From Escherichia coli (GTDB lineage: Bacteria; Pseudomonadota; Gammaproteobacteria; Enterobacterales; Enterobacteriaceae), in assembly GCF_024223415.1 (NCBI RefSeq), contig NZ_CP100500.1: a stretch of 64,000 bases of DNA; one strand, 5' to 3'. Made by a program: the position numbers and the translations under genes. Of this stretch, positions 12,582-27,143 are shown in pieces; the first letter of the stretch is position 1, and each line of letters starts with the position of its first letter. The notes beneath the pieces were generated by a model, which was not told the DNA's origin, did no database searches, and worked only from the letters and a program-made list of their open reading frames with translations.

Positions 12582-14041
12582 TGAAAAAATTACTGCGTCT
12601 TTTTTTCCCGCTCTCGCTGCGGGTACGTTTTCTGTTGGCAACGGCAGCGGTAGTACTGGTGCTTTCGCTTGCCTACGGAATGGTCGCGCTGATCGGTTAT
12701 AGCGTCAGTTTCGATAAAACTACGTTTCGGCTGTTACGTGGCGAGAGCAATCTGTTCTATACCCTTGCGAAGTGGGAAAACAATAAGTTGCATGTCGAGT
12801 TACCCGAAAATATCGACAAGCAAAGCCCCACCATGACGCTAATTTATGATGAGAACGGGCAGCTTTTATGGGCGCAACGTGACGTGCCCTGGCTGATGAA
12901 GATGATCCAGCCTGACTGGCTGAAATCGAATGGTTTTCATGAAATTGAAGCGGATGTTAACGATACCAGCCTCTTGCTGAGTGGAGATCATTCAATACAG
13001 CAACAGTTGCAGGAAGTGCGGGAAGATGATGACGACGCGGAGATGACCCACTCGGTGGCGGTAAACGTCTACCCGGCAACATCGCGGATGCCAAAGTTAA
13101 CCATTGTGGTGGTGGATACCATTCCGGTGGAGCTAAAAAGTTCCTATATGGTCTGGAGCTGGTTTATCTATGTGCTCTCAGCCAATCTGCTGTTAGTGAT
13201 CCCGCTGCTGTGGGTCGCCGCCTGGTGGAGTTTACGCCCCATCGAAGCCCTGGCAAAAGAAGTCCGCGAACTGGAAGAACATAACCGCGAATTGCTCAAT
13301 CCAGCCACAACGCGAGAACTGACCAGTCTGGTACGAAACCTGAACCGATTGTTAAAAAGCGAACGCGAACGTTACGACAAATACCGTACAACGCTCACCG
13401 ACCTGACCCATAGTCTGAAAACGCCACTGGCGGTGCTGCAAAGTACGCTGCGTTCTCTGCGTAGTGAAAAGATGAGCGTCAGTGATGCTGAACCGGTAAT
13501 GCTGGAGCAAATCAGCCGCATTTCACAGCAAATTGGCTACTACCTGCATCGTGCCAGTATGCGCGGCGGGACATTGCTCAGCCGCGAGCTGCATCCGGTC
13601 GCCCCACTGCTGGACAATCTCACCTCGGCGCTGAACAAAGTGTATCAACGCAAAGGGGTCAATATCTCTCTCGATATTTCGCCAGAGATCAGCTTTGTCG
13701 GTGAGCAGAACGATTTTGTCGAGGTGATGGGCAATGTGCTGGATAATGCCTGTAAATATTGCCTCGAGTTTGTCGAAATTTCTGCAAGGCAAACCGACGA
13801 GCATCTCTATATTGTGGTCGAGGATGATGGACCCGGTATTCCATTAAGCAAGCGAGAGGTCATTTTCGACCGTGGTCAACGGGTTGATACTTTACGCCCT
13901 GGGCAAGGTGTGGGGCTGGCGGTAGCCCGCGAAATCACCGAGCAATATGAGGGTAAAATCGTCGCCGGAGAGAGCATGCTGGGCGGTGCGCGGATGGAGG
14001 TGATTTTTGGTCGCCAGCATTCTGCGCCGAAAGATGAATAA
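12581..14041 (+). CDS. phoQ: Sensor histidine kinase PhoQ
   Basis: 486 aa; start overlaps phoP stop (ATGA); TM-periplasmic-HAMP-HisKA-ATPase layout. Confidence 0.95.
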
Positions 14042-14049
14042 ATATGTCC
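14039..14049. repeat. Left copy of short direct repeat taaatatgtcc overlapping the phoQ stop codon; candidate attL core
   Basis: 10-bp perfect match aaatatgtcc with 29402-29411 (13/15 over tgaataaatatgtcc vs tgataaaatatgtcc). Confidence 0.5.
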
Positions 14050-14121
14050 TTTTATCACCGATATTAGTTAATATATTGATTTAATTAAAAATATACACAA
14101 ACAAAAGTGCCAAAAATCGCA

Positions 14122-14147
14122 AATTAACTACACCATTAACTACACCG
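14122..14147. repeat. Inner 26-bp direct repeat aattaactacaccattaactacaccg, left copy (two tandem 13-mers); alternative att core
   Basis: Exact 26/26 match to 29252-29277; followed on both sides by similar phased repeat arrays. Confidence 0.8.
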
Positions 14148-14163
14148 TTCGGCGCACTGTATG

Positions 14164-14189
14164 AAACAACGTGGAACAAATAGGCACAA
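14164..14189 (+). promoter_or_regulatory. 10-bp-phased NNACAA direct repeats (AAACAA, GAACAA, GCACAA); putative recombinase/RDF or regulator binding array
   Basis: Motifs start at 14164, 14174, 14184; same family as arrays at 21838, 27909 and 29284. Confidence 0.4.
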
Positions 14190-14366
14190 GAAATATAAAG
14201 GCGGGTAATTTTAAGGGGGCGTTGCTGTCGATATGGGGATCCACATAACGGGGCTACCTGGCTTTTTTTCCGGTTAAATGTCAATCAGGCTGGTGGGCTT
14301 TACCTGTTCGGTAGGTGTTATGATTATCGTAATACCTTTCCCCCAATGGGGTAAAAGCATCAACCG

Positions 14367-14911
14367 TAACGAAAGTCGTTATGGTTGCCACCGATACTCC
14401 AAATTTGGGTATCACGAGTAAGCCCCAAAATCTGGGTGTTACTCTTACTACCCAAACTACGGGTAGTTTCCGTAGTTTCATGGTCGAGTTGCAGATCTGC
14501 AACTCCCCCATCAACCACAGGCGAATTTCCGCCTTCGGTCATTCCTTAATCATCTGCGTAATCATAATGATTATTCAGCCAGCTCAATTTTGAGCTTTGC
14601 TTTAAGTTCAGCGAGTTACCGCGCCGACTTCCTCAAATTGAGGTTTCCGAAAATATCAGTGGGTTAGCGATTAAGCAGATGGATAATTAACCTGCGAAAA
14701 TTTCGCAGGTTACATCAGCGACGTAATTCTCGCTGTTCCTGCCCGGAGGTGTCGACGAATTTCGTCGGAACCTAAGCCTGCCGGGAAGTCCGTACGTTAA
14801 ACGTACGGAGTTAATTCGACATCACACACTACGTTGTCAATTTGCAAAGGAGGGGCGGAAATCACCATACCTGCCACCCTGTCATACAGAAAGGGATTAC
14901 GATAATCGTAA
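14367..14911. repeat. Palindrome-dense noncoding block (at least eight perfect or near-perfect inverted repeats of 13-21 bp)
   Basis: Palindromes at 14367-14381, 14454-14478, 14486-14505, 14581-14596, 14631-14643, 14691-14709, 14752-14766, 14789-14809, 14897-14911; no convincing ORF. Confidence 0.6.
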
Positions 14912-14987
14912 CAGGATACAACGCCGCCTGTAATCGTAACCAATTGATTTTTATGATGACGCAAATCTGCGTTATCAGTCCTCAAAG

Positions 14988-15278
14988 TTACCGCCGCAAC
15001 CGTTCCGGCTTCTTCCACTGATAAGTGTTTTTCGCGCTCTCCTGATACATCGCCACGCGTCGACGGTATGCCAGCAACTCTAGTACTCTGATTCGTATGT
15101 CGCGCATATCCACGCCGTTAAGCTCAATACCGTCACGGCGCATCACCTCCGCCACAACACGCACATAATTTTCGGCGGTCACGCTGTCCGGCTGCGTGGC
15201 CTGTTCGTCATGCTGCTGGCTGATTCCGGTAACGCGGCGGATTAATCCCAGTAGTTCGGCTTCGCTCATTCTCGTCAT
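14988..15278 (-). CDS. Hypothetical protein (96 aa) downstream of terL
   Basis: ORF start overlaps the terL stop (translational coupling geometry); no recognisable motif. Confidence 0.4.
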   Translation of the reverse strand: MTRMSEAELLGLIRRVTGISQQHDEQATQPDSVTAENYVRVVAEVMRRDGIELNGVDMRDIRIRVLELLAYRRRVAMYQESAKNTYQWKKPERLRR

Positions 15279-16936
15279 ACCCCATCAAACGCCGCAAGCC
15301 GCTCTTTGTGGCTGTCGCTCATATCGAATGCAAATTCCTCATGCTCTGCCTGGAATGTGCCAAACGCCATCAGCGCCGCAACGCTCGGGTCTATCTTGTT
15401 GGATGATTTTTTCTTGTTCGGCTTGATATTGGCGTTCGCGTCACTCTGCATCACAACATTACTCATTGACCAGGCCAGCACCGGATCACCACGATGCACA
15501 ATCACCTTCCGGTTAACAAAAACTTCGAACGATTTCGCCGCCGGACTGAAACGAAGGTATGTTTGCGGGAACGGCTCCACCTCAAATCCTGCGCCCTGTA
15601 GCTGCGTCATCAGGTGCGTGGCGTTCCATGTATCGAAGCCCACCAGCCGGATATTAAAATTTTCCGCGTCCTTCATGATGTCATCCCTGATACGGTCGTA
15701 ATCAATACAGTCGCCTGGCGTTGTGCGTATCCAGCCCGATTTTGCCCACTGGCGATAGATGGCGCGGTTTTTATTGGCGGGATTCTGTAGCTGCTGCTCC
15801 GGCAGATAATGACGGGAAACCAGCATGATGGTTTTACCAACCGGAAAGGCATAACACACGCTTGAAATATCATTTGTTGATGATAAATCCAGCCCCGCAT
15901 AGCACTCCTGCCCGTGTAAATCTTCCTCCGTGAACGTTCCGGCACACTCAGCCCATGCACCGTTACCCATCCACGGCGTAGCCCCCTGACACCAGATATT
16001 AAAGCGCTTTGTCATCATCTCCACCCACTGCGACGGAATACCCCGCGCTTTCTGGATGGTTGAGGCAAGTTTTTCACGATCGACGGAAACATCGATATTG
16101 GGATTCGCCTTTATCCACATCGCCGGATCGTCAACCTCGCTTTCATCATCCAGCTCGTAAATCATCACGAACATGGATTCATTAACCTCTTCACCATCCA
16201 GTATCTGACAGCAATAATCATAGTGCTGCTTACAGGCAGAAATAACGTTGCTTCCCGATGTGGTAATGGCGAATAACAGCCCGTCAGGACGCGCACCCAT
16301 CCCAAGTTCAAGCGCGGAATATACGCCGTTATCGGGGTGTAAATGGTATTCATCCACAATGGCAAGACTCGGGTTTGTCCCCTCAATGGTCGCCGCCTTT
16401 GCCGCCAGTGGCTTTAACAGGCTGTTGGTTTTCGGGTGTATCACCTTGTGCGCCTGAATATTTACCCGCTTTCGTAACGGTCGGGATAAAAGGCACATCT
16501 GACGCGCATCATCAAACACGATCCGCGCCTGATCACGACTCACGGCGGCGGTGTAAATATCCTGCTGCCCGTTTTCCATAACCAGAAACCAGTTAGCCAG
16601 GATAGCGGCGACCGTGGATTTGGCATTTTTTCGCGGTACTTCAATGAATGCGCTGGTGTATTTGCGCCGTCCGGTGGACTTAACCTTAAAGCCCAGGATG
16701 CACGCAAAGGCGAACTGCTGCCACGGCTCCAGTTCAATGGGGCTACCGCGCATTGCACCTTTTACGTGCGGGCACACCCTGGAAAAGGCAATAAACCGCT
16801 CCACGACCTCCGGATCGAACGTGTAAAGGGGGTTTTCAAGGTCAGAAAAATACCGTTTAACAGCCTGTTTCAGTCGTTTACAGGCCGTAATTTTGCCGTT
16901 TTTTACGCCTTCTGCGTACTCATGCCAGGCGGTCAA
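15275..16936 (-). CDS. terL: Terminase large subunit
   Basis: 553 aa; N-terminal ATPase region with P-loop-like PRKNAKST, C-terminal nuclease-like region; follows terS. Confidence 0.85.
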   Translation of the reverse strand: MTAWHEYAEGVKNGKITACKRLKQAVKRYFSDLENPLYTFDPEVVERFIAFSRVCPHVKGAMRGSPIELEPWQQFAFACILGFKVKSTGRRKYTSAFIEVPRKNAKSTVAAILANWFLVMENGQQDIYTAAVSRDQARIVFDDARQMCLLSRPLRKRVNIQAHKVIHPKTNSLLKPLAAKAATIEGTNPSLAIVDEYHLHPDNGVYSALELGMGARPDGLLFAITTSGSNVISACKQHYDYCCQILDGEEVNESMFVMIYELDDESEVDDPAMWIKANPNIDVSVDREKLASTIQKARGIPSQWVEMMTKRFNIWCQGATPWMGNGAWAECAGTFTEEDLHGQECYAGLDLSSTNDISSVCYAFPVGKTIMLVSRHYLPEQQLQNPANKNRAIYRQWAKSGWIRTTPGDCIDYDRIRDDIMKDAENFNIRLVGFDTWNATHLMTQLQGAGFEVEPFPQTYLRFSPAAKSFEVFVNRKVIVHRGDPVLAWSMSNVVMQSDANANIKPNKKKSSNKIDPSVAALMAFGTFQAEHEEFAFDMSDSHKERLAAFDGV

Positions 16937-17276
16937 GCTCGTCCTCTTCCTCTGTTTCCGGTGGATTTCTGCGTCGGCTTACCGGGTCAAAACCCAGCAA
17001 AGAAGCCATTTTGATCATTATTCTTTCTGCGTCAGCCTTTGCGCTCAGGGCGGGGTTTCTGCTCTCGCTGCCCTGACTGTTAACAATGCTGAACCCGCGC
17101 GTCGCAAGGTCTTCGACGGCTTTGCGGTATAGGGAGTAGTTAACGCAATACAGCTCAAGATTGCTCCAGTCGGCGGGGGTAAGGTCTTCCCGCCCGGAAA
17201 GCTGGCGCGATTTTTCCTTCCATTGCCTGACGGCAATTTCATCCAGGTAAGCGGGGGCTTTTGGTGGTCTTGCCAT
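16920..17276 (-). CDS. terS: Terminase small subunit (P27-family-like)
   Basis: Starts MARPPKAPAYLDEIAVRQWKE...; short basic N-terminus typical of P27-type TerS; overlaps the terL start. Confidence 0.6.
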   Translation of the reverse strand: MARPPKAPAYLDEIAVRQWKEKSRQLSGREDLTPADWSNLELYCVNYSLYRKAVEDLATRGFSIVNSQGSESRNPALSAKADAERIMIKMASLLGFDPVSRRRNPPETEEEDELDRLA

Positions 17277-17321
17277 GTTCTTTTTTCGCCCAATTATTTT
17301 CAAAAAAATTCCCGTGCACAA

Positions 17322-17565
17322 AAATTTGAGCAGGCGGTCGGTTCTGGGCAGGGTCGGGTTCGTCCTGAAAACTCCCCCCCACCCCGTCCGGCTGCCTCAT
17401 CAGCGATTGCGAAAACATTCCATGACCTCGCGGTCACGGTCGGTTAATCGCTTCGCTGTGGTGCGTTTTGTGCGCCCTGTCCTGTTGGCTTTGTGCTCTG
17501 TCTCCTGTGTCTTCCATGTGTCACGCTGCCTTATCAGTCCACGTATCAGCCTGGTTTGCTCCTGT
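17322..17565. other. Candidate cos/packaging site in the HNH-terS intergenic gap
   Basis: 244-bp noncoding gap with G-rich and C-rich tracts (ggcggtcggttctgggcagggtcggg, actcccccccacccc) at the position where HK97-like cos sites lie. Confidence 0.3.
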
Positions 17566-18006
17566 TCAGTCATCATCGCCATACATCCAGTCGTTACGGT
17601 GTGCCGCCCGTTCTTCCTGCTCGCGATACATGCCCGCTTTACGGTTTGCTTTCGTGGCTGGATCTTCCCGTGTGGTCTTACGGTTGTGGCACGTCTGGCA
17701 CAATGCCTGGTGATTCCACTCAGGCCAGAAGAGAACATCATTACCGCCATCGATGGGGATAATGTGATCCACCACCACGGCGGGCGTGTATATTCCTTTT
17801 TCCAGGCAATGCGCACATAACGGGTTTTTACTCAGGTACATAGCGCGGTATTTCTCCCACTGCCTCGTATACCCTCGCTCCCTGCTGCTGCCTCTCCGGC
17901 TGTCCTGCTGCTGGCGTGCGCTGCGTCTGTGCTCCTCACACTTCCCGGACTTCACGCGCCTGTTGCAGCCTGGTTGTGTGCATCGTCTCAATGGTTGCCA
18001 CGGCAT
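17566..18006 (-). CDS. HNH endonuclease (packaging-associated)
   Basis: 146 aa with Cys-His motif (CAHCLEKG...DHIIPIDGGND...ALCQTCHNRKT); sits next to terS as in HK97-like cos phages. Confidence 0.75.
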   Translation of the reverse strand: MPWQPLRRCTQPGCNRRVKSGKCEEHRRSARQQQDSRRGSSRERGYTRQWEKYRAMYLSKNPLCAHCLEKGIYTPAVVVDHIIPIDGGNDVLFWPEWNHQALCQTCHNRKTTREDPATKANRKAGMYREQEERAAHRNDWMYGDDD

Positions 18007-18302
18007 CAGTACACCCCCACATCACGATAAACCGACCAGAGCGCGGAAATCGTCAGGGGAATTTCTTTTGTATCGGTATCGCCAAGCGTTGTCCGGTACT
18101 CGTACAGTTGCGAGATGTACATCAGGCAACCAATTTTTATTGCAGGGGTAAATTCCAGGCCGTCATCAAAACGCCTGCCAATATGCTTCTGGCATACCTC
18201 CAGCGCCGCGCTTATGTATGCCTGAATCAGTGTGTCTTCTGTGTTACCATCTATGCGGCAGTGAAGTTTGGCCTCTTCCAGGGTTATTTTTTCTGCTGTC
18301 AT
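18006..18302 (-). CDS. Head-tail connector protein (gp6-like)
   Basis: 98 aa, MTAEKITLEEAKLHCRIDGNTEDTLIQAYISAALE... typical of phage gp6-like connectors. Confidence 0.55.
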   Translation of the reverse strand: MTAEKITLEEAKLHCRIDGNTEDTLIQAYISAALEVCQKHIGRRFDDGLEFTPAIKIGCLMYISQLYEYRTTLGDTDTKEIPLTISALWSVYRDVGVY

Positions 18303-18637
18303 TTTTCTGTACCCACCTTTGCCAGAATTTCCAGCCGGGTTCTTTTCGCATCAGGTAAGGGGATCCCGATGATATTAAGCGTGCTCCCGGCAAAAGCGCC
18401 GGTAAGCACTTTCAGGCGACTGGCGGCGGATATGTCGCCACGATAGCGAACCCATACCCGAATCGTTGCAGGTGCGGTTTCTGCGCCTGCGGTCAGTAAT
18501 TCCCGTCCGCTGATCCCCTTGACCTCTGCCCAGATGGTTTCCCCTTCCGTCCATATCTGCTGGATCGCACCTGACGGCAGGCGCTGTGTGGTAAATGTCA
18601 TAATCGTCACCCGGTCCCGCATCTTTCCGGCTATCAT
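18299..18637 (-). CDS. Head closure / head-tail adaptor protein
   Basis: 112 aa; size and position (after portal, before HNH) fit the head-tail joining family. Confidence 0.5.
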   Translation of the reverse strand: MIAGKMRDRVTIMTFTTQRLPSGAIQQIWTEGETIWAEVKGISGRELLTAGAETAPATIRVWVRYRGDISAASRLKVLTGAFAGSTLNIIGIPLPDAKRTRLEILAKVGTEK

Positions 18638-19851
18638 TCGTCACCGCCCTTACTGTTCTTGCTGATTGTCACTTCCTGCTTCCATGCCTGGCTGAACTCG
18701 TCGCCACCTTCACGCGGCGGCATTCCCTCACGCTCACGGGCTTCGTTCGGATTGATGATCCCGTTCTTAATCCCTTTCTCATACGTGGCGTAACGTTCGG
18801 TAGGGGTGGCGCGTAATAAATCGGCTGAATCAAACTCAACCAGATAACGGGTACCAGGTACGGGAGAAGCCACCAGCAAAGCAGCCTTGATTTGCTGTTC
18901 GAAGTTCGCCAGCCACGGGCGCATTGTCATGGTCAGAAACGCGCGGCTTGCCTCACTGAAATTGCTGTAGGTGCTGTTGCTGTATTCCTGCAAAAAAATC
19001 GGCGAGACGTTGAACATTCGGGCGATGTCTTCAATGGTAAAGCGACGGGAGGCCAGCCATTCAGCATCCTGATTACTCATGCCCAGCTGCTGATAGCTCA
19101 TACCCCCTTCAAGGATGGGCGTTTTTCCGGCGTTTCTGGCCCCTTTGTAGCGTTCCAGTGCGGCTAATGCCTGTTTGCCCTTCACGCCGTCCAGCCATTC
19201 GCCTGACGTGATAACCCCTGCCGCCATCATGCCATCACGCATCACGCTCGCGCCGTGGCGTTGTTGGGCCAGCCCAAGCCCCAGCGATTCGCGGCAGATG
19301 GTTACAGGTGAGCGCCCCATAAAGCCGTCATCCGTGGAGTAACGAAGGTGGAGAACCTCCCACGGTAAATAGTTGCGGGTGTTTCCGGTGTAGGCGTCAG
19401 TGATGCAGTAGCGCCAGTTATGCTCACCTGTCTGCTCCACGTTCACCGACTGCGGCGGGTAAGGATGTAAAGCCACCGGAAAACCATCACGCCCCCACTG
19501 AATAACCGCATAAGCATTACCGTTTAACAGGCAGTGGCGGATCATCATTCGCTTAAACTGGTAGGGGGTTTGCCATGCGTTCGGGCGCTCGTTGAGGATG
19601 TGATCGACCGGATGAGAATCAAGCCACTCGCGGGCCTCCTTCCCCTTCTCATTGCGTACCAGGTACAGGTAACACGGCATGGTAGCCACCGCCTCAGAGA
19701 TGACCGTCACGGCGTTCATGACGGCGGGCAGTGATTCCGCTGTCCCCGATGATACGTACTCACCCGCCCCCGTGTTCGATGTGCCCGCCAGCGCCATAAA
19801 TTCATCAAGCGTCATGCTGCGCTGCTCTTTTTTTCTTCTGAAAAGCCACAT
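18634..19851 (-). CDS. Portal protein (HK97 family-like)
   Basis: 405 aa; position between protease and connectors; composition typical of HK97-type portal. Confidence 0.8.
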   Translation of the reverse strand: MWLFRRKKEQRSMTLDEFMALAGTSNTGAGEYVSSGTAESLPAVMNAVTVISEAVATMPCYLYLVRNEKGKEAREWLDSHPVDHILNERPNAWQTPYQFKRMMIRHCLLNGNAYAVIQWGRDGFPVALHPYPPQSVNVEQTGEHNWRYCITDAYTGNTRNYLPWEVLHLRYSTDDGFMGRSPVTICRESLGLGLAQQRHGASVMRDGMMAAGVITSGEWLDGVKGKQALAALERYKGARNAGKTPILEGGMSYQQLGMSNQDAEWLASRRFTIEDIARMFNVSPIFLQEYSNSTYSNFSEASRAFLTMTMRPWLANFEQQIKAALLVASPVPGTRYLVEFDSADLLRATPTERYATYEKGIKNGIINPNEAREREGMPPREGGDEFSQAWKQEVTISKNSKGGDE

Positions 19852-19852
19852 A

Positions 19853-20425
19853 TCACACCCCCGCTAAATCCACCCACCAGCGGCGATTATCCGCACGCGG
19901 CATTTTTTCGGGGTGCTGCTCATACAGGGAACGGCGGGCCAGCTCCACGCCGGAATCGGGGTAAGCCGGTACCGATGTAACGGTAATTTCGTACAGTTCC
20001 GCCACCAGCACGGTACGAACGCATGGATCTGTTGTGGTATCCCATACATCCTTACGGGAGCGAAAGCCAAAGCTCATGCCGGATATATCACCGCGTTTAA
20101 CCAGTTCGATAACGTCGCGCCCTGTACTGGTATCCGGTGGGGTCAGTTCAAAGCGTAACCCTGTTTCGTCCTCTTCCAGTTTCAGCGTGCCGGAACGGGT
20201 GCGCCCCAGTAACATGCTGTGGTCATGCTCATACAGGCCGCGAACGTCATTACCCGCCGCAAGCCATTCAGTAAACGCCCCCCGCTGGAATTTTTCGTAA
20301 AACTCACCCCATAACAGTTCTGAAAGCTTATCCCAGCGAACAACGTAGCCCGTCAGCGTACCGGCTCCGCTCGTGGTGATTTCCGATGACCGGATTTCCA
20401 TACTCTTCATAATTTTTTCACCCAT
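19853..20425 (-). CDS. Prohead maturation protease (HK97 gp4-like)
   Basis: 190 aa immediately downstream of the capsid gene. Confidence 0.75.
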   Translation of the reverse strand: MGEKIMKSMEIRSSEITTSGAGTLTGYVVRWDKLSELLWGEFYEKFQRGAFTEWLAAGNDVRGLYEHDHSMLLGRTRSGTLKLEEDETGLRFELTPPDTSTGRDVIELVKRGDISGMSFGFRSRKDVWDTTTDPCVRTVLVAELYEITVTSVPAYPDSGVELARRSLYEQHPEKMPRADNRRWWVDLAGV

Positions 20426-20464
20426 AAAACACTAAAGGGGCTTTTAAGCCCCTTCTGTATGCTG

Positions 20465-21622
20465 TTAATCGTCGTCCTGTGGCAGTTCCAGAATCTTGAT
20501 CGCGTTCGAATCCACCACGCCACCGCCTAAATATTTCTGCGTGAAAATTTTGATGAAGCCCGGCTCTGTGATGTTGTCCGGTCTGGTGCGAACACCTGTT
20601 TCGTGATCAACAATGTAGTAACCGCGTTTGAAGTCACCCAGGGCAATAACGTTATCAGGCATAAACTCCAGATATTCGACCGGAAGGCCCAGCAACGTAT
20701 CAGGATCACCCGCCTGTAAACGGTCGCGCCAGATGTAATCACCGTTCGCGTTCTTCACCTTCTGAAGTTTTGCCGCCGTTGTGGAGTTAACCACCCATAC
20801 CGCGTTCTTGCGGTATTTTTTACGCAATGCAAATTTCAGGTCGATCAGCGGGTCCGCAGATGTCCACGCCAGACCGTGAGCGGGCTTGATAACCTGCAAC
20901 GTTCCGAAGTCGCGTTCTTTGTCGCTCTTCTCTGCACGGGGGACGGATAAAAAGCCTTTTGCTTTTTTGTCACCGTCGCCCACAACCAGATCGCTTTCTT
21001 CGGTTTCCGTGAAGGTGTCGCCAATCTCGGCCGTCAGCCATGAAAGGATGTCCACATCGGAAAAATCCACGATTTCCTGTGTGGTGCGCGGGTACGCATA
21101 GACCGGATACAGCTTAATGCTCACCTCGTTAATCTGCGGGGTGCTGGTCTGTTCGCGTGCCTTACCCTCTTCACCGTGGTTAACGGTCGCACCGCCAGCG
21201 GAAACAAGCTGCTTAAACTCGTTGCTGCTGATTTTCTTCACGGTACAGATGCGGCGCATGGTGGATTCATCCGCCAGCATTCGCATGATTTCGGTGTTCA
21301 GTTCGGGGATAACGGTATAACCACCATCAGCGGGAACGCCTGTACTTAATGCGCGGGTTTCACCTGTCAGAATGTAGTTGCGTAGTTCTGCGGGGTCAGT
21401 GGTCTGACTGCTTTTACCTGGCTTGCTGCGCTCTTCGTCTGCAATGGCTTCAAGGCGGGAAATGTCTTTATCGAGGGATTCAGCTTTAGCGCGTAATTCA
21501 TCAAATTTTGCGCCCTCAGCATCGTTAAGACTGCGGTTTTCTTTTTCCGCGTTCTCCAGCATGTCGCGCATCTGATTTTTAATGGCGGTTTTCTGCTGGC
21601 GTAATTCGATTATTCTCGGCAT
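20465..21622 (-). CDS. Major capsid protein, HK97 fold, with N-terminal coiled-coil scaffold (delta) domain
   Basis: ATG at 21622 gives MPRIIELRQQKTAIKNQMRDMLENAE... (delta domain) then capsid body; the longer ORF to 21667 would read through a terminator hairpin. Confidence 0.85.
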   Translation of the reverse strand: MPRIIELRQQKTAIKNQMRDMLENAEKENRSLNDAEGAKFDELRAKAESLDKDISRLEAIADEERSKPGKSSQTTDPAELRNYILTGETRALSTGVPADGGYTVIPELNTEIMRMLADESTMRRICTVKKISSNEFKQLVSAGGATVNHGEEGKAREQTSTPQINEVSIKLYPVYAYPRTTQEIVDFSDVDILSWLTAEIGDTFTETEESDLVVGDGDKKAKGFLSVPRAEKSDKERDFGTLQVIKPAHGLAWTSADPLIDLKFALRKKYRKNAVWVVNSTTAAKLQKVKNANGDYIWRDRLQAGDPDTLLGLPVEYLEFMPDNVIALGDFKRGYYIVDHETGVRTRPDNITEPGFIKIFTQKYLGGGVVDSNAIKILELPQDDD

Positions 21623-21660
21623 AAAAAAAAGTCCTGGGGTTAAGTAAGGAACTCCAGGAC
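21623..21660 (-). terminator. Intrinsic terminator on the minus strand directly abutting the capsid start codon
   Basis: Minus strand reads gtcctgg-(16 nt)-ccaggac followed by TTTTTTTT, then ATG of the capsid gene. Confidence 0.45.
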
Positions 21661-21837
21661 GCGGCAAAAACTCAACCGTTTTTCATAAGGAAATCAGCAA
21701 TCGCACCGATCGTTTTCCCGCCTGGTAATGAATATTGGCGAGCACATTAACAGGCGGGAAAGTGGCCCCAGCGTCCTGGCACCACGGGCGAGAATAATCA
21801 TGATTCAGTTCGAGTAAAATATGCCGATCCGCTCAGT

Positions 21838-21896
21838 GAACAACCTGGAACAACCACGAACAAATAATTTACAAAACCTGAAAAAATAAATAAACT
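21838..21896 (+). promoter_or_regulatory. Promoter of the 157-aa gene with phased upstream repeats: GAACAA x3 at 10-bp spacing, then -35 TTTACA, 17-bp spacer, -10 TAAACT
   Basis: GAACAA at 21838, 21848, 21858; TTTACA 21868-21873; TAAACT 21891-21896; AGGAGG SD at 21924 and ATG at 21938. Confidence 0.45.
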
Positions 21897-21937
21897 GTTC
21901 CGTACATTTTCTGCTCGTTAATCAGGAGGAACGAACT

Positions 21938-22411
21938 ATGTCAGAAAATGAACTGAAAAAAGCAATGTTCATTCAGCAACGATTGCAGATTCTCCACCTT
22001 GGTAAACACTATGATGAGTTCAGTGATTCTTACGTGTATGCCTGGGAGGCAGATGTTTATCCTTTCTTGCAGGATGGCGACGGAAGTATTCCTGCTCGCC
22101 CACATGAAATTTACGAAGAGTTTTTCGGCACATCTAAAAACAAAGCCAAAAAGATATACGATCGTCTGTGCAAAGCCTGGCACGACCAGGAGGCACTCAC
22201 ATTCTATAAACTAGAAAGTGAATATGGTGTAACAAGTAGCAGCATGCACAGATGGACACGAAGTGATTTACTTCACATCTGCCGCTATCTGTATCTTGAG
22301 GGGTGTTTCGATAAAGATTTCTGGGAAACATTACTGGAAAACGGAAAATGCCCAAGCGAAGCACTTTACCTTAGCGATGAATTTAATCGCGATACAGAGA
22401 TCGACTTCTAA
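21938..22411 (+). CDS. Hypothetical protein (157 aa), stand-alone opposite-strand cargo gene
   Basis: Strong SD and promoter, own bidirectional terminator; only plus-strand gene inside the structural/regulatory part of the island; no recognisable domain. Confidence 0.65.
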   Translation: MSENELKKAMFIQQRLQILHLGKHYDEFSDSYVYAWEADVYPFLQDGDGSIPARPHEIYEEFFGTSKNKAKKIYDRLCKAWHDQEALTFYKLESEYGVTSSSMHRWTRSDLLHICRYLYLEGCFDKDFWETLLENGKCPSEALYLSDEFNRDTEIDF

Positions 22412-22448
22412 AAAAATGGCCTGGAAAATACCAGGCCATTATTATTCT
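22411..22448. terminator. Bidirectional intrinsic terminator between convergent genes
   Basis: atggcctgg-aaaata-ccaggccat flanked by an A-run on one side and T-rich sequence on the other. Confidence 0.55.
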
Positions 22449-22695
22449 ACCGTTTCACGGGATCACGCATTCTGCGCCTTATTTTCCACAGATATTCGAT
22501 CATCGCTTCCACCTGCTCACGGTTGGTTGCGAAAATTTCCCCGGTCAGTGAGCTACGCAGAAAATCATGATGATCCACAAAAAATAACGCATCGGAAGAA
22601 AGCAGCCGGAGATATTTTTTTGCTGTCGTGCTTTCCAGATCATCAAAATCATGAAGCTTTTTATGTTGCTGGACTTCTTCAAATGTCACTGGCAT
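22447..22695 (-). CDS. Hypothetical protein (about 82 aa)
   Basis: Internal ATG (MPVTFEEVQQHKKLHDF...) downstream of the PerC-like gene. Confidence 0.45.
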   Translation of the reverse strand: MPVTFEEVQQHKKLHDFDDLESTTAKKYLRLLSSDALFFVDHHDFLRSSLTGEIFATNREQVEAMIEYLWKIRRRMRDPVKR

Positions 22696-22740
22696 GTTTC
22701 CTCCTGCTACCACGATACCAGAAACAGTTAACAACCGTTA

Positions 22741-23022
22741 TCAATTATCCCCTTTTTTAGGGTAGTTCCTGAACATCTCACCGCCAGGCTTCTGTAAGCC
22801 CATCCCGGTATGTGTGCGGTTTATGGCCTCTTTCAGTATTCCGAAATTATCCGGTATGACTGGTGGGCGTGCTGCCTTACGGATACATTCCGCGCGACGC
22901 TTTGCCACTTGTTCGCGCTCCTTGTCAGTGCTCACCAGCCACATAACATCAGCCCATCGCGCGGCCGCCCTCCGGTAAAATCCTTTCGCCTCCAGTTCCT
23001 CCGCTATCCGGTCATGTACCAT
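22741..23022 (-). CDS. PerC-family-like transcriptional regulator (tentative)
   Basis: About 93 aa from internal ATG: MVHDRIAEELEAKGFYRRAAARWADVMW...; the EAxGxxRRAAxxW motif resembles PerC-type activators. Confidence 0.4.
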   Translation of the reverse strand: MVHDRIAEELEAKGFYRRAAARWADVMWLVSTDKEREQVAKRRAECIRKAARPPVIPDNFGILKEAINRTHTGMGLQKPGGEMFRNYPKKGDN

Positions 23023-23032
23023 CGTCACCCCC

Positions 23033-23443
23033 TCAGAACGGAATATCATCACCGTAAGGGTCATCGCCTCCCGCTGGTGGCTGATTACCCTGTGTGCCTG
23101 TGGTTTTGCGTCTGTTCCCACCAGGACGTGCCGCACGCGCACTGATTACGCTGTCTGCGATAACCTGCCAGCCCTGCCGCGTTTCCCCGTTCTGTCCGGT
23201 CCACTGGCTGACCTGCATCGTGCCGGATACGCTGGCAACGTCGCCTTTTTGATGTTTAGCCAGAAAGTCGGCCTGTTTGCCAAATGCGATGACCGATAAC
23301 CATAACGTCGCCTGTCCGTCCTGTGCCTGGCCGCATGGTAAAGATACCGCCATACGCGCCAGCGTCATCGGTGTACCCTTACTGGTCTGTTTTACCTGCG
23401 GGTCGTCCACCAGCCGCCCGTAAGCTGCAATTTGTGCTGTCAT
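23033..23443 (-). CDS. ssb: Single-stranded DNA-binding protein
   Basis: 136 aa with OB-fold-like core and acidic C-terminal tail ending DDIPF. Confidence 0.85.
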   Translation of the reverse strand: MTAQIAAYGRLVDDPQVKQTSKGTPMTLARMAVSLPCGQAQDGQATLWLSVIAFGKQADFLAKHQKGDVASVSGTMQVSQWTGQNGETRQGWQVIADSVISARAARPGGNRRKTTGTQGNQPPAGGDDPYGDDIPF

Positions 23444-23452
23444 ATTGCCACC

Positions 23453-23758
23453 TCAGTGAAGCGATCCGGCGTTGTTCTTTTTCATCTCTTCCATCATTTT
23501 TTCAGTGAGCATTACGCACTGAAAACCCATGTTTTTGATGTCTACGGGTTTCATGCCTTTGTCAGTGGATATCACAGGCAGAATATCCTGATACACATCG
23601 CCGCCAGGGTAACTAAGCACACAAAGCGCCCATGATGCCACGGGTGAGGATCCTTGGTCTGTTTCAACCCACCAGCCTGGTGTAGCTGCGCTTATTTGCA
23701 GAATCGTGATCCGTCCGTTGTGCTTGTAAAATTTTTCACCACATTTTGGTTCGCTCAT
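23453..23758 (-). CDS. Hypothetical protein (101 aa)
   Basis: ORF in operon context between ssb and the ori region. Confidence 0.4.
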   Translation of the reverse strand: MSEPKCGEKFYKHNGRITILQISAATPGWWVETDQGSSPVASWALCVLSYPGGDVYQDILPVISTDKGMKPVDIKNMGFQCVMLTEKMMEEMKKNNAGSLH

Positions 23759-24006
23759 GCTTCCACCTCTCCGGTTTTAACGTTGATGGTTGTCACCTGT
23801 TCCGCTCCGGCAATCTCCCGTTCTGTCAGCGTGGCAAAATTTGCCGCTACCGTTGTCATGAATGCGCTTATCAGTTCGGGATGTGCTTTCGCGTATCCTT
23901 CTCCCGCGTGGCGGTCTATCGTTCTGATTGCCACCTTTAAGGCGTGCTCTGTCATGTCTAACGCTTTATATTTTGGCGCTGTCTTATCTCTGGTTTTTCT
24001 GTTCAT
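23755..24006 (-). CDS. Hypothetical protein (start uncertain)
   Basis: ORF 23755-24036 trimmed to an internal ATG because its 5' end runs into the iteron array. Confidence 0.3.
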   Translation of the reverse strand: MNRKTRDKTAPKYKALDMTEHALKVAIRTIDRHAGEGYAKAHPELISAFMTTVAANFATLTEREIAGAEQVTTINVKTGEVEA

Positions 24007-24225
24007 TCCCCACCACTCCCCACTTTTGCTCCCCACTTTTTAAATTCCCCACTTGCTCCCCACCTCGTTTTTTGAGTGAATCTAATGCTTTGTTTTTCAT
24101 TGCGTTTTTTGCTCCCCACTTTTTTGGATGTATACAGGTGGGAAAGTGGGGAATTATGTTTCAATTTTGTTAAATTCCCCACTCTCCCCACTTTTACTAC
24201 CCACTTTTTACAGTGGGTAAACATC
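24005..24225. repeat. Iteron array (at least 8 copies of tccccactttt-like units in both orientations around an AT-rich core); putative replication origin
   Basis: Repeats ctccccactttt, gctccccacttttt, attccccact and inverted gtgggaaagtgggg, immediately 3' of the primase/helicase gene. Confidence 0.6.
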
Positions 24226-25614
24226 ATCCCCATCGACACAAATCACGCCGTCTTTTTCCAGCTTGTACAGCCAGCGCCGGAAGTGCTTCATCTCATACCC
24301 CAGCTTTTTCATATCGTCGCGGAGAAGGGCGATAGTGCATGGCTCTTTGTGTGCCGTCCGCGTTCTGATGCACTGCCATAGCGCGGCGTGATTCTCCGAT
24401 TTGTTGCCTGCTTCCTCGATGCGCTCCAGTTCAGCAGGGGCGCGGGGAACGTCAATCACCACCATAGACACAATCTCTTCGCCATCTGTATCGGTGAACA
24501 CCTCCACGCTTTTAAGGTCGTATGCACTCTCTTTTGGCTCCTCTGCGTCCTTCATCTTCGTACACGCCGCCACCAGTGCTGTAACGTCTGAATTTTCCCG
24601 GCTGATTCGGTACTCTGCATCAAGCGCGGCACGGAATGCGCTGGAACCACGCGCCCCCTTTGTTTCATCCTTGCCGGAATGGTGAACCACCAGCACCGTG
24701 GCCCCTGTGGCCTGCTTTATCGCGTCACACCCCTGGATAAATGCGCCCATATCACGGGAATCATTTTCATCATTCCCACCAAAGCAACGGGCCAGTGTGT
24801 CGATCACAATCAGCCGCACATTTTCGCCCGTTCTGCTCTTAACAAGTCCGGCAGTCCTGATAACCTGCTCCACATAGTCAGGCGATGCAGGGAAAACAGG
24901 CGCGTTAATGATGCACAAATCTGTAACCACCTTGTCGTGGGTTATCTCCCACGCCTTAACGCGGCGTTTTACGCCCATGCTGCCTTCACCAGCGATATAG
25001 ATAACCGCCCCCTTACTTACCCTGCGGCCTCCCCATGCCATACCTGTGGCAACATGGCACGACCAGGAAATGGCGAGGAACGATTTATAAGAACCGCTGG
25101 CCCCGTAGGTGCTGCATAATGACTCAGCCGGAATAAGCCCCTTAATTACGTAGCTTTGCTGCGCGTCGAATCCCTCAGAACCCCATGAGATGGGAAGCGT
25201 GATTTTTCGCTTTCCGCCATTCATGACCAGGCTTTCCCCTCTCTCCCATGTTTCCCGTAGTCGTGGTAGCTGGTCGCTCCAGTCCTCCAGCAGTTCGAAA
25301 TTTTCAGAAAGTAGCCGCGCCTCCTGGACTCCGGCGATCGCCAGTTTTGTGGCAATGGTCAGCATCTGCATATCGTCCAGGTTTCCGGCGCGTATGACCT
25401 TTGCCCTGTATCGTCCTTCATCAACAATCTGTAAGTTGTCCAGTTCGCTTAACTGATAACGGCCCAGGTAAACCGGAGGGATGGGATCGCCTGCTTTTTT
25501 GGCCTGTGCAATCATGTAATGTTCTGCAAAGGAGTGAGCATTATCACCCGCAAAAATAACCGCCTCAGTGTGTTTATCTTTCGGTAACAGTTTTACGTTC
25601 GGTGCAAGTTTCAT
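24208..25614 (-). CDS. Replication protein: primase-like N-terminus plus RecA/DnaB-like AAA ATPase (pri-rep)
   Basis: 468 aa; Walker A-like IYIAGEGSMGVKRR and Walker B-like LIVIDTLARCFG, C-terminal winged-helix-like tail. Confidence 0.75.
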   Translation of the reverse strand: MKLAPNVKLLPKDKHTEAVIFAGDNAHSFAEHYMIAQAKKAGDPIPPVYLGRYQLSELDNLQIVDEGRYRAKVIRAGNLDDMQMLTIATKLAIAGVQEARLLSENFELLEDWSDQLPRLRETWERGESLVMNGGKRKITLPISWGSEGFDAQQSYVIKGLIPAESLCSTYGASGSYKSFLAISWSCHVATGMAWGGRRVSKGAVIYIAGEGSMGVKRRVKAWEITHDKVVTDLCIINAPVFPASPDYVEQVIRTAGLVKSRTGENVRLIVIDTLARCFGGNDENDSRDMGAFIQGCDAIKQATGATVLVVHHSGKDETKGARGSSAFRAALDAEYRISRENSDVTALVAACTKMKDAEEPKESAYDLKSVEVFTDTDGEEIVSMVVIDVPRAPAELERIEEAGNKSENHAALWQCIRTRTAHKEPCTIALLRDDMKKLGYEMKHFRRWLYKLEKDGVICVDGDDVYPL

Positions 25615-25898
25615 TTCTTACCCCCTGCGACCAGCATTTCACGGATTTTGCGGATATAACTTGCAGCACGTTTCTGATTAACGGCTTTACGATGGCCCAC
25701 CAGCGTGAAATCACGCCGGAACTGATAAACAGGCATAACGCAGTCATATTCGTAGCCTTCACGGCGGTAAGTTACGCGACGTTCCTCCACGCTTTTAATT
25801 GTTACCGTGCCGCCGTAGTTATCTTTGAAAATATCGCCGGGGCGGATTTCAGGCCGAGCGGGGCCGCTGGCAGTAAAGCCAGAATATTTAAGTTTCAT
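25611..25898 (-). CDS. Hypothetical protein (95 aa)
   Basis: Stop overlaps the pri-rep start; basic protein. Confidence 0.4.
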   Translation of the reverse strand: MKLKYSGFTASGPARPEIRPGDIFKDNYGGTVTIKSVEERRVTYRREGYEYDCVMPVYQFRRDFTLVGHRKAVNQKRAASYIRKIREMLVAGGKK

Positions 25899-25903
25899 TA
25901 TTT

Positions 25904-26137
25904 TTATTCTCCGGTGTGCTGTTCTTTATATCTGTCGTGCAATAGGTCTATTTCCTGCAACTCTGTTATTACAGGTTCAAGGAGAGTTATCAGAGATTTA
26001 ATAATCCGCGCATTCTTTACATCACGCTCATTATCGCCAAATGTATCTGGATACATTTGCAATATTTCGTACATACCTTCAGCGTAAGCAATGGCACTAA
26101 ATGCGCGGTCTATTGTTTCGAGGTAAATATCACGCAT
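25904..26137 (-). CDS. Hypothetical protein (77 aa)
   Basis: Compactly spaced ORF in the same operon. Confidence 0.4.
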   Translation of the reverse strand: MRDIYLETIDRAFSAIAYAEGMYEILQMYPDTFGDNERDVKNARIIKSLITLLEPVITELQEIDLLHDRYKEQHTGE

Positions 26138-26138
26138 A

Positions 26139-26387
26139 TTAATCCCCGTCCGTCGTTTTTCTTAAAATAACCTCTGTCACGAAATCAGCATAATCGGCGG
26201 CGATATTCAGTACATCAAGCCCCGTTGATTTATATTCTCTCGTGGAAAGTAAGAAAAAAGCCGCTCTAATAAGCTCTGGCATTGACGAAAGCGCATCAGC
26301 CGCATCATCAGGAACGCCGGAAAATTCCTGTTTCAGGGAATTAAAACGATCATCACGCATAACCCCCCCCATTTTCACAATCAGCAA
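26139..26387 (-). CDS. Hypothetical protein (82 aa)
   Basis: Compactly spaced ORF in the same operon. Confidence 0.35.
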   Translation of the reverse strand: MLIVKMGGVMRDDRFNSLKQEFSGVPDDAADALSSMPELIRAAFFLLSTREYKSTGLDVLNIAADYADFVTEVILRKTTDGD

Positions 26388-26634
26388 TCAGGATGGCTTT
26401 GGCCTCATTCAGTGCCATATCAGCGGTAAGCTGTGCGTAGGCCAGCAAATGCGGGATTATTGCCCCTGTATATTCCGTCTCTCTGGTAATGTGTTTTTCT
26501 GCGGTTGCTGCCGTGCATGAAATATCAATCAGCGCGTGCATCAGCGTTTTGATGGCTTCGGCGGCTGCGTCCGGACGGGTGTTATTGCACATGGCACACC
26601 TCCTGACGGATACGGGCGGCGAATACAGCGACAC
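26353..26634 (-). CDS. Hypothetical protein (start uncertain)
   Basis: ORF overlapping its neighbours; probable start at an internal ATG. Confidence 0.3.
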   Translation of the reverse strand: MSLYSPPVSVRRCAMCNNTRPDAAAEAIKTLMHALIDISCTAATAEKHITRETEYTGAIIPHLLAYAQLTADMALNEAKAILIADCENGGGYA

Positions 26635-26780
26635 AACCGGACGGGCAACGGTTACGCGCTTCGCGTTCCGTCCAGGCGGTCACGTGGATAATTTGAGATT
26701 CTCCGGCACTCAGTGCCAGAAAACGCCACACAAAGGCGGTTTGTGTGTGCGCTAGTCGTGGGGTATGCTGTGTTCCAGCC
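26582..26780 (-). CDS. Hypothetical small protein (about 66 aa), first gene of the leftward early operon
   Basis: C-terminal part of spurious 267-aa ORF, from ATG near 26780: MAGTQHTPRLAHTQTAFVWRF...; divergent from the RHH gene. Confidence 0.35.
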
Positions 26781-26867
26781 ATAATCGTTACTCCTGTTAA
26801 CGGTTTGGTTAGACGCCCTGCATGTGTTACAGCACTGCGGGGCGTTGTCTTTTTAACGGCTTTCGTG

Positions 26868-26917
26868 ATAGGGTGTACACCTATCAAGCAAAAAAATAAC
26901 GCTATAGGTGTACACAT
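26868..26917. promoter_or_regulatory. Two operator-like palindromes centred on GTGTACAC in the divergent regulatory region
   Basis: atagggtgtacacctat (26868-26884) and tataggtgtacacat (26903-26917); the second overlaps the RHH start codon. Confidence 0.45.
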
Positions 26918-27110: not shown

Positions 27111-27143
27111 TAGCCCACCAGCAAGCCAGGACACTGATCACAT

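Follow-up and report, generated by a model that had tools for sequence, protein, structure and literature searches.

The 64,000 nucleotides of Escherichia coli DNA analysed here (the window; contig NZ_CP100500.1 of assembly GCF_024223415.1) contain a phage-inducible chromosomal island (PICI) beside phoQ, and a noncoding segment crowded with palindromes lies at the left end of this island. Our analysis shows that the segment, which we call the block and which occupies 14053-14987 as a terminal module between the attL core and the stop codon of a small gene, p93, is a real, statistically extreme and widely conserved modular end-piece made of palindromes and consensus sites for the integration host factor (IHF) and tied to p93. 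The original prediction for this DNA had described the palindromes at 14367-14911; a repeated unit that joins an IHF consensus site to a palindrome, an ordered series of modules, a Chi site and a probable attP arm on the att side are features that it did not contain. With a probability of roughly 0.4, we read the block as a cis-acting end module that would resemble the bacterial interspersed mosaic elements (BIMEs) of the chromosome, combining hairpins in a 3′ untranslated region (UTR) with DNA bent by IHF beside attP.

The density of palindromes far exceeds what the base composition of the block would give. Between 14367 and 14911 we counted 10 perfect inverted repeats (stem of at least 7 bp, loop of at most 8 nt) against a mean of 0.27 in 500 dinucleotide-preserving shuffles (standard deviation 0.53, maximum 3). 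When 711-bp frames were taken across the 64-kb window the mean was 0.62 hairpins and the block gave the maximum, and its single strands folded with z-scores of -7.7 (minus) and -12.2 (plus) relative to shuffles. All eight palindromes listed by the original prediction are present where it placed them, one of them (14691-14709) inside a longer palindrome at 14688-14712 with 12-bp arms and a 1-nt centre, and three further ones can be added to its list (14367-14381, 14559-14573 and 14716-14735). Its view that the block holds no convincing open reading frame (ORF) is borne out as far as tested: the ORFs present measure 47-77 aa and the five that were tested (59-77 aa) had no PHROG match, while in sibling blocks gene callers occasionally predict ORFs of 50-61 aa, which are without Pfam support. 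No tRNA or tmRNA was found in the block. It was also correct that the palindromes are neither copies of one operator nor a series of simple terminators, and that the block follows the last gene of the late packaging operon on the minus strand; we found no terminator ahead of it. Two of its statements hold in part. The absence of T-runs after the palindromes is true of the minus (sense) strand but not of the plus strand, which has one weak terminator-like site at 14581-14596, and the statement that each palindrome has a different sequence is true within the window but overlooked both the shared module families and the repeated unit. Intrinsic terminators as an identity of the block were rejected after a search of 13900-15400, which returned no minus-strand site and only the one plus-strand site just mentioned, a total within the level of shuffles.

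The repeated unit forms an array of tandem copies of about 49 nt that starts at the p93 stop codon and comprises 1-5 units per block. Read in the direction of the gene, which is the minus strand of the window, a unit consists of a linker with the consensus CTAACCCGYTGATATTTTCGGAAA, a palindrome of 13-27 nt and the sequence A(A/G)G(T/C)CGG. About a dozen palindrome types occur in this position, including CCTCAAtTTGAGG, CCTGCAaTGCAGG, TCCCCCAtTGGGGGA, CAGCCaacGGCTG, AGCGCAAaaTTGCGCT and CCAATTTCCACAGaCTGTGGAAATTGG. The linker carries YAANNNNTTGATW, the reverse complement of the IHF consensus WATCAANNNNTTR, and is thus an IHF-consensus site within a repeated unit. When 32 distinct units are aligned without gaps, the linker columns that do not vary (T2 A3 A4, T10 G11 A12 T13 and W14) are exactly the specified positions of the consensus, and its four N positions vary. 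Strict matches to WATCAANNNNTTR occur at 2.96 per kb in 56 distinct blocks, whereas 369 kb of island DNA upstream of them have 0.043 per kb, and 102 of the 115 matches in these blocks share one orientation. Those in the opposite orientation are mostly a single conserved site right beside the att core that recurs in all att classes, a homologous site (TTAATTAAATCAATNNNTTR) adjoining the core in islands at other att sites. Since this is where the IHF site of an attP is expected, the consensus scan appears to detect real sites.

The unit is conserved in its pairing as well. A covariance model (R1) collected 126 units, 67 of them distinct, from 70 sources; within a locus all matches lie on one strand, which is the p93 strand wherever p93 is present, and the first match often begins at the p93 stop codon, with which the first unit overlaps in sibling islands. 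Outside the palindrome, and separated from it by a conserved internal loop of 3x3 purines (AAA/AAG), a second helix continues the pairing; its sequence is TTTCGG/TCGGCG, with CCA/TGG, CCAG/CTGG and CCCGA/TCGGG among the variants. Pairing is kept in 91% of cells compared with 77% in shuffles, and slid partners reach at most 57%. The covariance check proposed with the original prediction gave a score of 0.418 versus 0.202 in shuffles, in keeping with conserved pairing. The window block itself holds a single canonical unit, an adjacent diverged unit and an inverted unit-like element, its other palindromes being rarer variants of the modules. The canonical unit (14619-14667) is composed of an IHF-consensus-like linker CTAACCCACTGATAT, the outer helix, the AAA/AAG internal loop and the palindrome CCTCAATTTGAGG (14631-14643). 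The inverted element (14936-14972) retains a strict IHF consensus match with an A-tract (14937-14949, minus strand) and an adjoining hairpin ACGCAAATCTGCGT (14959-14972).

Beyond the array the modules follow a fixed order, which from p93 onward reads array; G-K-Y or an alternative M-H pair; N-P-S-A-W; arm repeats; att core. Hairpins of at least 7 bp number 7.9 per kb in the 56 distinct blocks compared with 0.73 per kb in upstream island DNA. Compensatory changes are found in hairpins outside the units too: in the sibling locus L071 (sibling loci are given L numbers) module Y changes from GATACCC/GGGTATC to GATCCCC/GGGGATC, module P changes by way of a G.T intermediate, and the palindrome at 14688-14712 has the compensated form CTACG...CGTAG in strain A34. 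Module K, which forms two mutually exclusive hairpins (14447-14467 and 14454-14478, the latter with 9-bp arms and a 7-nt loop), remains unchanged when the arm repeats, and with them the att class, change. Judged from these alignments, pairing or symmetry is what is conserved. Among the roles offered by the original prediction, the two-arm compensatory changes favour one of hairpin or palindrome structure over one of many sequence-specific operators. A cluster of operator-like sites for several dimeric DNA-binding proteins, whether of the island, the helper phage or the host, is highly improbable in our view. Many of the palindromes are true palindromes with G+C-rich arms and A/T-rich centres, like helix-turn-helix operators, and each type is well conserved across islands (CCTCAATTTGAGG and GAGTTGCAGATCTGCAACTC are examples), but about 12 or more unrelated types would need equally many proteins, the types are exchanged freely between islands that have the same genes, and the compensation in both arms keeps symmetry and not sequence. 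Moreover the block palindromes do not recur at the regulatory regions of the island; the sole repeat family linking the block with the rest of the island is a 16-of-18 match inside a coding region.

Megablast searches with 14042-15278 gave matches in 1,597 of 5,426 complete E. coli genomes (about 29%), at a median of one place per genome and always at the ends of PICIs, with no match covering >80% of the query length. Exact-protein look-ups of two 93-aa homologues of p93 led to 20 loci in which p93 is the last gene of an HNH/TerS/TerL operon or of a capsid-E/decoration-D/Nu1-like one and is followed by 0.7-1.4 kb without a supported gene before clpS, mdtJ/ydgV, thiM or phoQ is reached. Blocks of this type thus accompany PICIs that package in two different ways and occupy at least four integration sites, and the vocabulary of palindromes is shared between them. 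Absence or lack of conservation in related islands, which the original prediction had named as speaking against it, is not what we see, since the block is conserved there. The block had no blastn match among 50,697 phage records. A protein scan of genome contigs gave no match, and a DNA-pattern scan of one genome per species gave only chance-level single matches in unrelated taxa; as the scans beyond Escherichia yielded chance matches only, the unit is demonstrated just in Escherichia-type PICIs. PICIs are major E. coli vehicles of gene transfer and phage interference whose maps are drawn from genes alone, and the literature that we searched on PICIs and capsid-forming PICIs (cf-PICIs) makes no mention of palindromes, hairpins or noncoding elements at this end of the island. 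The 0.7-1.4 kb at one PICI end is a conserved and highly structured noncoding module which is a candidate for acting in cis on expression of the late operon, on the stability of its mRNA, on recombination at att or on interference with the helper, and which marks the junction at which satellites exchange packaging and integration modules.

Two phoQ-site islands are identical over the att-proximal ~460 nt, then diverge and rejoin at the 96-aa gene, the divergence consisting of insertion, deletion and replacement of short palindrome-bearing segments. In the window the stretch 14688-14911, with its longest palindromes, is a rare variant; two clonal genomes have the whole of it and one further genome has a part. 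Could the palindromes then be a by-product of recombination? The block would in that case be a junction at which template switching made palindromes and units were duplicated, tolerated as a spacer that might tune the length packaged from cos, and any sequence-specific function would be limited to the att arm and Chi. Mosaic module content, block lengths anywhere between 0.7 and 1.4 kb, perfect palindromes whose centres measure 0-1 nt, as fold-back copying would produce them, and central bases that flip between strains are all consistent with such an origin. We nevertheless regard it as very improbable, because the order of modules is conserved, module sequences are near-invariant across att classes, hairpin density is ~10-fold above that of the rest of the island with pairs kept by compensation, and the conservation of the IHF pattern is position-specific.

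The closest known system is that of BIME-1/RIP (RIB), which are reportedly extragenic palindromes at the 3′ ends of operons together with an IHF site. The block resembles them in its short extragenic palindromes, clustered where a transcription unit has its 3′ end, in its mosaic of motifs, in its hairpins without U-tracts and, at the sequence level, in the IHF consensus that lies in the linker beside the palindromes. The mechanism we propose is drawn from this analogy. The late transcript would leave p93 and enter the array unterminated, and the hairpins, folded in its 3′ UTR, would obstruct 3′ exonucleases and stabilise the upstream message. The hairpins would further damp read-out toward attL and the flanking DNA or, in the circular form of the island, toward attP and int, and weak terminator-like hairpins on the other strand could damp read-in from phoQ, which would matter because the island displaced whatever followed phoQ. 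IHF would bind the linkers and bend the DNA adjoining the attP arm. Finally the units, being repeated and partly conserved, could serve as the junction for the exchange of packaging and integration modules between PICIs. If the module is BIME-like in its action, mobile elements would have evolved their own version of that architecture independently of repetitive extragenic palindromic (REP) sequences.

Several observations weigh against a BIME-like end module. The palindromes are not REP sequences: the REP consensus (GCCKGATGCGRCG...CTTATCMGGCCTAC) is absent from the block and, with 3 mismatches allowed, is matched in the window only at 30613 and 49062 and nowhere in 14042-14990. The palindromic units of BIME-1/RIP alternate as Y and Z and are dispersed in hundreds of copies, whereas those of the block are direct tandem repeats that carry a different palindrome each and occur only at PICI ends, linked to p93. 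As the REP consensus, the alternating orientation and the genome-wide dispersal are all missing, the block is not itself a member of BIME-1/RIP. Sense-strand U-tracts are lacking, neither strand folds with the lower energy overall (sense is lower than antisense in 28 of 56 blocks), single-mismatch variants are divided evenly between G.T (10) and A.C (10), and true palindromes, with centres of 0-2 nt, make up 47% of the distinct hairpins but 27% of the background, a symmetry that an RNA hairpin does not need. The outer helix barely exceeds its composition control (87.2% vs 85.0%), and a passive 3′ UTR does not explain the tight linkage of array and p93. The window has but one canonical unit, and its longest palindromes (14688-14911) were seen in 2-3 genomes. 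Anatomy, conservation, covariation and motif enrichment are demonstrated by our analysis; passage of the transcript through the block, binding of IHF and any consequence for RNA or recombination are inferred.

Our data do not decide between RNA and DNA, a choice that the original prediction had also left open, and the evidence for one transcribed strand is weak. Speaking for a single strand are the preservation of pairing by two-sided changes, the complementarity that flanks a conserved, non-complementary loop and would be meaningless in duplex DNA, the many G.U pairs on the sense strand of the unit, and the contiguity of the array with the p93 stop codon, no terminator lying between them. An assignment of the strand from G.U pairs in the outer helix was rejected, since it reduces to about three inherited positions and is unsupported by block energies, mismatches and an outer-helix-only control. 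The IHF consensus is a feature of DNA, as are Chi and the arm repeats. The centres of the true palindromes are 78% A/T and their arms 47%, and the excess of A/T-centred palindromes points to duplex symmetry, easy opening into cruciforms or an origin by fold-back copying. The most economical view is that the module works at both levels, as is thought for chromosomal BIMEs.

A role at the DNA level alone would make the block a nucleoprotein scaffold, with IHF on the linkers and palindromes that are prone to form cruciforms or are bound by protein; it would act as an oversized P′ arm of attP or in the management of supercoils or packaging, and RNA folding would be irrelevant. We consider this rather unlikely. 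Such a scaffold would account for the ~68-fold enrichment of the IHF consensus and for conserved columns that coincide with consensus positions, for the strict match retained in the inverted unit of the window, for the excess of true palindromes with A/T centres, for the lack of strand bias and for the position of the block beside arm repeats, core-proximal IHF site and Chi. It is harder to reconcile with an array that lies 500-900 bp from the att core, exceeding known attP sizes, with units that run in the orientation of p93, always beginning at its stop codon, and with the constancy of module K while the arm repeats change. Palindromes of 13-25 bp are also short for stable cruciforms, and the complementarity around the 3x3 purine loop has no meaning in duplex DNA.

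The part of the block nearest to att (14053-14400), which overlaps the left edge of 14367-14911, is probably an attP arm, having arm-type repeats on both sides of the core (14122-14147 and 29252-29277) and an IHF consensus near it (14069-14081). The 26-nt repeat AATTAACTACACCATTAACTACACCG, found at both ends of the island, also ends islands at the clpS site, and variant arm repeats occur at other att classes. Being island-borne and shared with clpS islands, the repeat most likely represents paired arm-type sites for the integrase.

Chi (GCTGGTGG) is present on the minus strand of the island at 15640, 18870, 19874, 20002, 23407, 23669, 24687, 25697, 27115 and 28339 and on its plus strand at 14289, within the block, and at 23073. 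The 10 sense-oriented copies in 15.4 kb correspond to 0.65 per kb compared with 0.22 per kb in the flanking chromosome (~3x), an enrichment that suggests protection of the satellite from RecBCD; no Gam-like inhibitor was seen among the island genes searched. A Chi in the orientation of 14289 is present in ~85% of the 56 distinct blocks. In a BIME-like end module, this oppositely oriented site would stop RecBCD that enters from the terminase-gene end and so protect the end of linear or rolling-circle DNA, and the ten sense-oriented sites would cover RecBCD arriving from the other direction.

Homologues of the 96-aa ORF that precedes the block start at its second Met, which gives a protein of 93 aa (p93). 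It belongs to phrog_1561, of unknown function in PHROG, in a narrow family of 38 clusters. No match to p93 was found in Pfam or the PDB, nor by tblastn among 50,697 phage records; its predicted structure is a 3-helix model (predicted local distance difference test, pLDDT, 73) without a fold match, and it ends in a conserved basic tail, YQWKKPERLRR. Identity with Rpp was rejected because p93 had no PDB match although crystal structures of RppC have been reported (PMC6739421). The leader pattern was found in 67 IMG/VR contigs, mostly of satellite size, and in 57 of the 67 it lies just 3′ of the p93 gene; of two exceptions examined, a decayed p93 lies upstream in one, L062, and the other, L056, has only a weakly p93-like ORF, which is on the opposite strand. 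In L037 (11861-12903) a 59-aa, internally deleted p93-like ORF, a unit array and a full p93 gene stand in tandem, which indicates that the p93-array module can duplicate as a unit. At the 3′ end of the gene (14988-15030, minus strand) the invariant C-terminal coding sequence …TGGAAGAAGCCGGAACGGTTGCGGCGGTAAC resembles the junction between unit trailer and next linker, …AAGCCGGAA…/…GGCGCGGTAAC, and a common origin, or a common constraint at the nucleotide level, may underlie the end of the gene and the array.

The tightness of this linkage, up to the duplicated p93-like ORF, array and p93 gene, would suit an RNA or ribonucleoprotein acting in trans: the array would be co-transcribed with p93 and processed into small hairpin RNAs, possibly bound by p93, that serve as decoy, sponge or interfering RNA against helper phage or host. 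The extended hairpin with its conserved purine internal loop and many sense-strand G.U pairs, an A/U-rich linker that might be a site for RNase E, and the basic tail of p93 are in line with this proposal. Even so we judge it decidedly improbable, as there is no match to an Rfam family and no signature of a CsrA sponge, the units differ from one another, unlike those of ToxI-type arrays, and no toxin gene follows, the fold of p93 has no RNA-binding match, and the G.U bias comes down to about three inherited positions. A broader proposal, which we hold to be clearly unlikely, leads us to speculate that p93 and the array of IHF sites and hairpins form a dedicated module of Escherichia PICIs that acts beyond its own operon, either as small hairpin RNAs or as DNA folded by IHF and perhaps p93. 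If this were true, the module would interfere with expression or packaging of the helper phage or control the switch of the satellite between replication and integration, and would represent a new nucleic-acid-based layer of the conflict between satellite and helper and not a passive 3′ end.

Other known systems share single traits with the block. Like the region of lambda attP and sib, it places structured elements just outside an att arm with IHF and arm-type sites, and integration separates these elements from int and excision rejoins them. In the circular form, however, the block is upstream of int, which is transcribed away from att, whereas sib is downstream, and lambda has one RNase III site where the block has many hairpins and no duplex of RNase III length; given the different orientation relative to int, the block is not an analogue of sib. 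The sopC locus of F (12 x 43 bp) likewise repeats in tandem a palindrome-bearing unit of 40-50 bp, and parS of P1, an IHF site flanked by ParB boxes, uses IHF as an architectural partner. In sopC an identical palindrome per unit is bound by one protein, whereas the palindromes of the block differ and no partition genes go with it. Type III antitoxin arrays (ToxI, CptI) are made of tandem units of ~36-49 nt on mobile elements in phage conflict, but their units are near-identical pseudoknots whereas those of the block are dissimilar hairpins with no endoribonuclease toxin gene after them. A ToxI-type array was rejected on the dissimilarity of the units and because, by inspection, the att site and host genes follow the array with no gene called.

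Further identities were tried and rejected. No Rfam family reached its gathering threshold in the window; the best match was to manA (RF01745; 21.6 bits vs 55.2), lacks the pseudoknot, did not recur in nine other loci and was judged to be chance. A CsrA sponge of the CsrB/RsmZ type would have loops and linkers many-fold enriched in GGA; 54 arrays contain 1.65 GGA per 100 nt, about the random expectation. For integron attC sites (RYYYAAC/GTTRRRY), inspection of the units found linkers reading GCCTAAC and no matching GTTAGGC after the hairpin. A lambda-type cos in the block was discarded as there is no cosN anywhere in the island of the window. A decoy that titrates IHF was rejected on abundance, since a cell contains tens of thousands of IHF dimers.

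In the window the chromosome runs icd ... purB-phoP-phoQ, then the island, then roxA-pepT-pot, PhoP and PhoQ having been identified from the list of ORFs in the window in agreement with the RefSeq annotation at sibling loci. The 15.4-kb island (14042-29414) starts directly after the phoQ stop codon, phoQ ending at 14041, and its att core is a short repeat near AAATATGTCC (14035-14058 and 29397-29420). Every island gene except one is on the minus strand. From the right end the order is int (28001-29251, 416 aa, an integrase typed by position and size alone), a repressor-like gene, primase-helicase (24208-25614), SSB, an activator and the late operon, which consists of portal, protease, capsid, connectors, HNH (17566-18006), TerS (16920-17321), TerL (15275-16936) and the 96-aa ORF (14988-15278), and the block lies directly 3′ of this last gene. 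PHROG matches were obtained for TerL, TerS, HNH, primase-helicase and SSB, and sibling loci bear Pfam labels; portal, protease, capsid and connectors were assigned by size and order of the ORFs and by the Pfam connector label in sibling loci. By its gene content, with int, primase-helicase and its own HNH, TerS, TerL, portal, protease and capsid but no tail genes in ~15 kb, the host island is a cf-PICI, for which this gene set has been described (bioRxiv 10.1101/2022.09.08.507074).

That the island encodes its own primase-helicase and SSB would suit single-strand DNA hairpins used in replication, for instance in priming of the complementary strand during the formation of rolling-circle concatemers. 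Plasmids and phages have hairpin-based single-strand initiation (ssi) signals and primosome assembly sites, which a dense cluster of hairpins of diverse sequence resembles. We give next to no credence to this role for the block, as the iterons of the candidate origin are 10 kb away beside the primase gene, there is no overall strand bias, and priming would explain neither the IHF consensus nor why the array is tied to the p93 stop codon. The iterons themselves (3-4 copies of TTTTGCTCCCCACTTTTT, spacing 83-85 bp) are situated at 23997-24210, immediately downstream of the primase-helicase gene, and are probably the replication origin of the island.

The features of the block are listed in Table 1.

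Table 1. Features of the island end in the window, ordered from the att side to p93.
Feature	Position	Strand	Remarks
attL core (AAATATGTCC region)	14042-14052		overlaps phoQ end; left boundary of island; direct repeat D12
IHF consensus AATCAATATATTA beside att core	14069-14081	-	strict WATCAANNNNTTR match; candidate site
two direct repeats (TTAACTACACC x2), module I, likely integrase arm-type	14122-14147	+	same 26 nt at 29252-29277 just upstream of int (D1)
module W palindrome, GGATCC (Dam GATC) centre	14229-14250		inverted repeat I3; TGGGGATCCCCATATCG conserved in most of 56 blocks
Chi GCTGGTGG in conserved module S	14289-14296	+	opposite orientation to 10 Chi sites in island genes
module P hairpin CCTTTCCCCCAATGGGGTAAAAG	14335-14357		variants ACCCCA/TGGGGG, CCGCCA/TGGTGG and CCACCA/TGGTGG retain pairing
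module N hairpin CAACCGTAACGA-AAG-TCGTTATGGTTG	14361-14387		inverted repeat I7; conserved across blocks
palindrome	14367-14381		one of three added to the list of the original prediction
long imperfect hairpin including module Y	14395-14465		33-nt arms, 73% complementary; inverted repeat I1
module K	14447-14478		four AACTAC motif copies (2 direct, 2 inverted); conserved in 16 distinct variants
module G, perfect 20-bp palindrome GAGTTGCAGATCTGCAACTC, GATC centre	14486-14505		near-invariant in 16/16 distinct G-K-Y variants
hairpin GGCGAATTTCCGCC	14520-14533		perfect form GGCGGAATTCCGCC in L014 and L018
palindrome TAATCATAATGATTA	14559-14573		common to many blocks
diverged array unit: linker GTAACTCGCTGAACTTAAAGCAA and palindrome AGCTCAAAATTGAGCT (14581-14596)	14575-14618	-	weak terminator-like site on plus strand
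canonical 49-nt array unit	14619-14667	-	covariance model R1: 72 bits, E = 9e-21
25-nt palindrome TAACCTGCGAAAATTTCGCAGGTTA, CGAAATTTTCG family	14688-14712		relatives in L003 and L015
hairpin CAGCGA-N8-TCGCTG	14716-14735		conserved in PKF11 and A34
palindrome CGACGAATTTCGTCG, AGGT/ACCT outer complementarity	14753-14767		only in 2-3/5,426 complete genomes
palindrome TCCGTACGTTAAACGTACGGA, 10-bp arms	14789-14809		A34 differs at central base only
palindrome TTACGATAATCGTAA	14897-14911		inverted repeat
inverted unit-like element beside p93 stop	14936-14972	+	R1 match on plus strand, 13.3 bits; same arrangement in L029
p93 gene, last of late operon	14988-15278	-	96-aa ORF; phrog_1561

Only two Dam sites (GATC) occur in 14042-14987, at 14238 and 14494, and each is the exact centre of a conserved palindrome, as GGATCC in module W and as AGATCT in module G, respectively. 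Blocks with the M-H modules contain a set of GTGAC motifs that is absent from the window; in L003, ~405-445 nt past the p93 stop, four of them are spaced by 10-11 bp, in helical phasing, and the set looks like protein-binding iterons.

Islands at the thiM site adjoin a thiamine pyrophosphate (TPP) riboswitch (L018 4258-4375, L144 1084-1218 and L145 73-207), which scores 34-36 bits against an Rfam gathering threshold of 54.3, and the att site at thiM may overlap the riboswitch or have altered it. Sibling PICIs with a Nu1-like TerS carry two exact copies of lambda cosN (GGGCGGCGACCT) in inverted orientation flanking the Nu1-like gene (L003, L004, L005, L008 at ~2058/2186 plus and 2925 minus, L023, L025 and L034), the second of them ~70 bp upstream of p93 and outside the block; these pairs fit the cos1/cos2 pair reported for EcCICFT073 (PMC6092414). 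In the window a gene-less gap of 245 bp (17322-17565) separates the HNH and TerS genes and, by analogy with HK97-type phages, is likely to be the cos site of the cf-PICI.

The sole island gene on the opposite strand (21938-22411, plus; 157 aa, without a PHROG match) may be accessory cargo and is followed at ~22405-22440 by a hairpin with a T-run that resembles a bidirectional terminator. Upstream of the portal gene, where the late operon starts, TTGTTC direct repeats lie at ~21850-21880 (minus strand). They recur beside the integrase arm repeats, at ~14180-14200 in the block and ~1020-1050 nt past the p93 stop in L003, and may be sites of one regulator, possibly AlpA-like.

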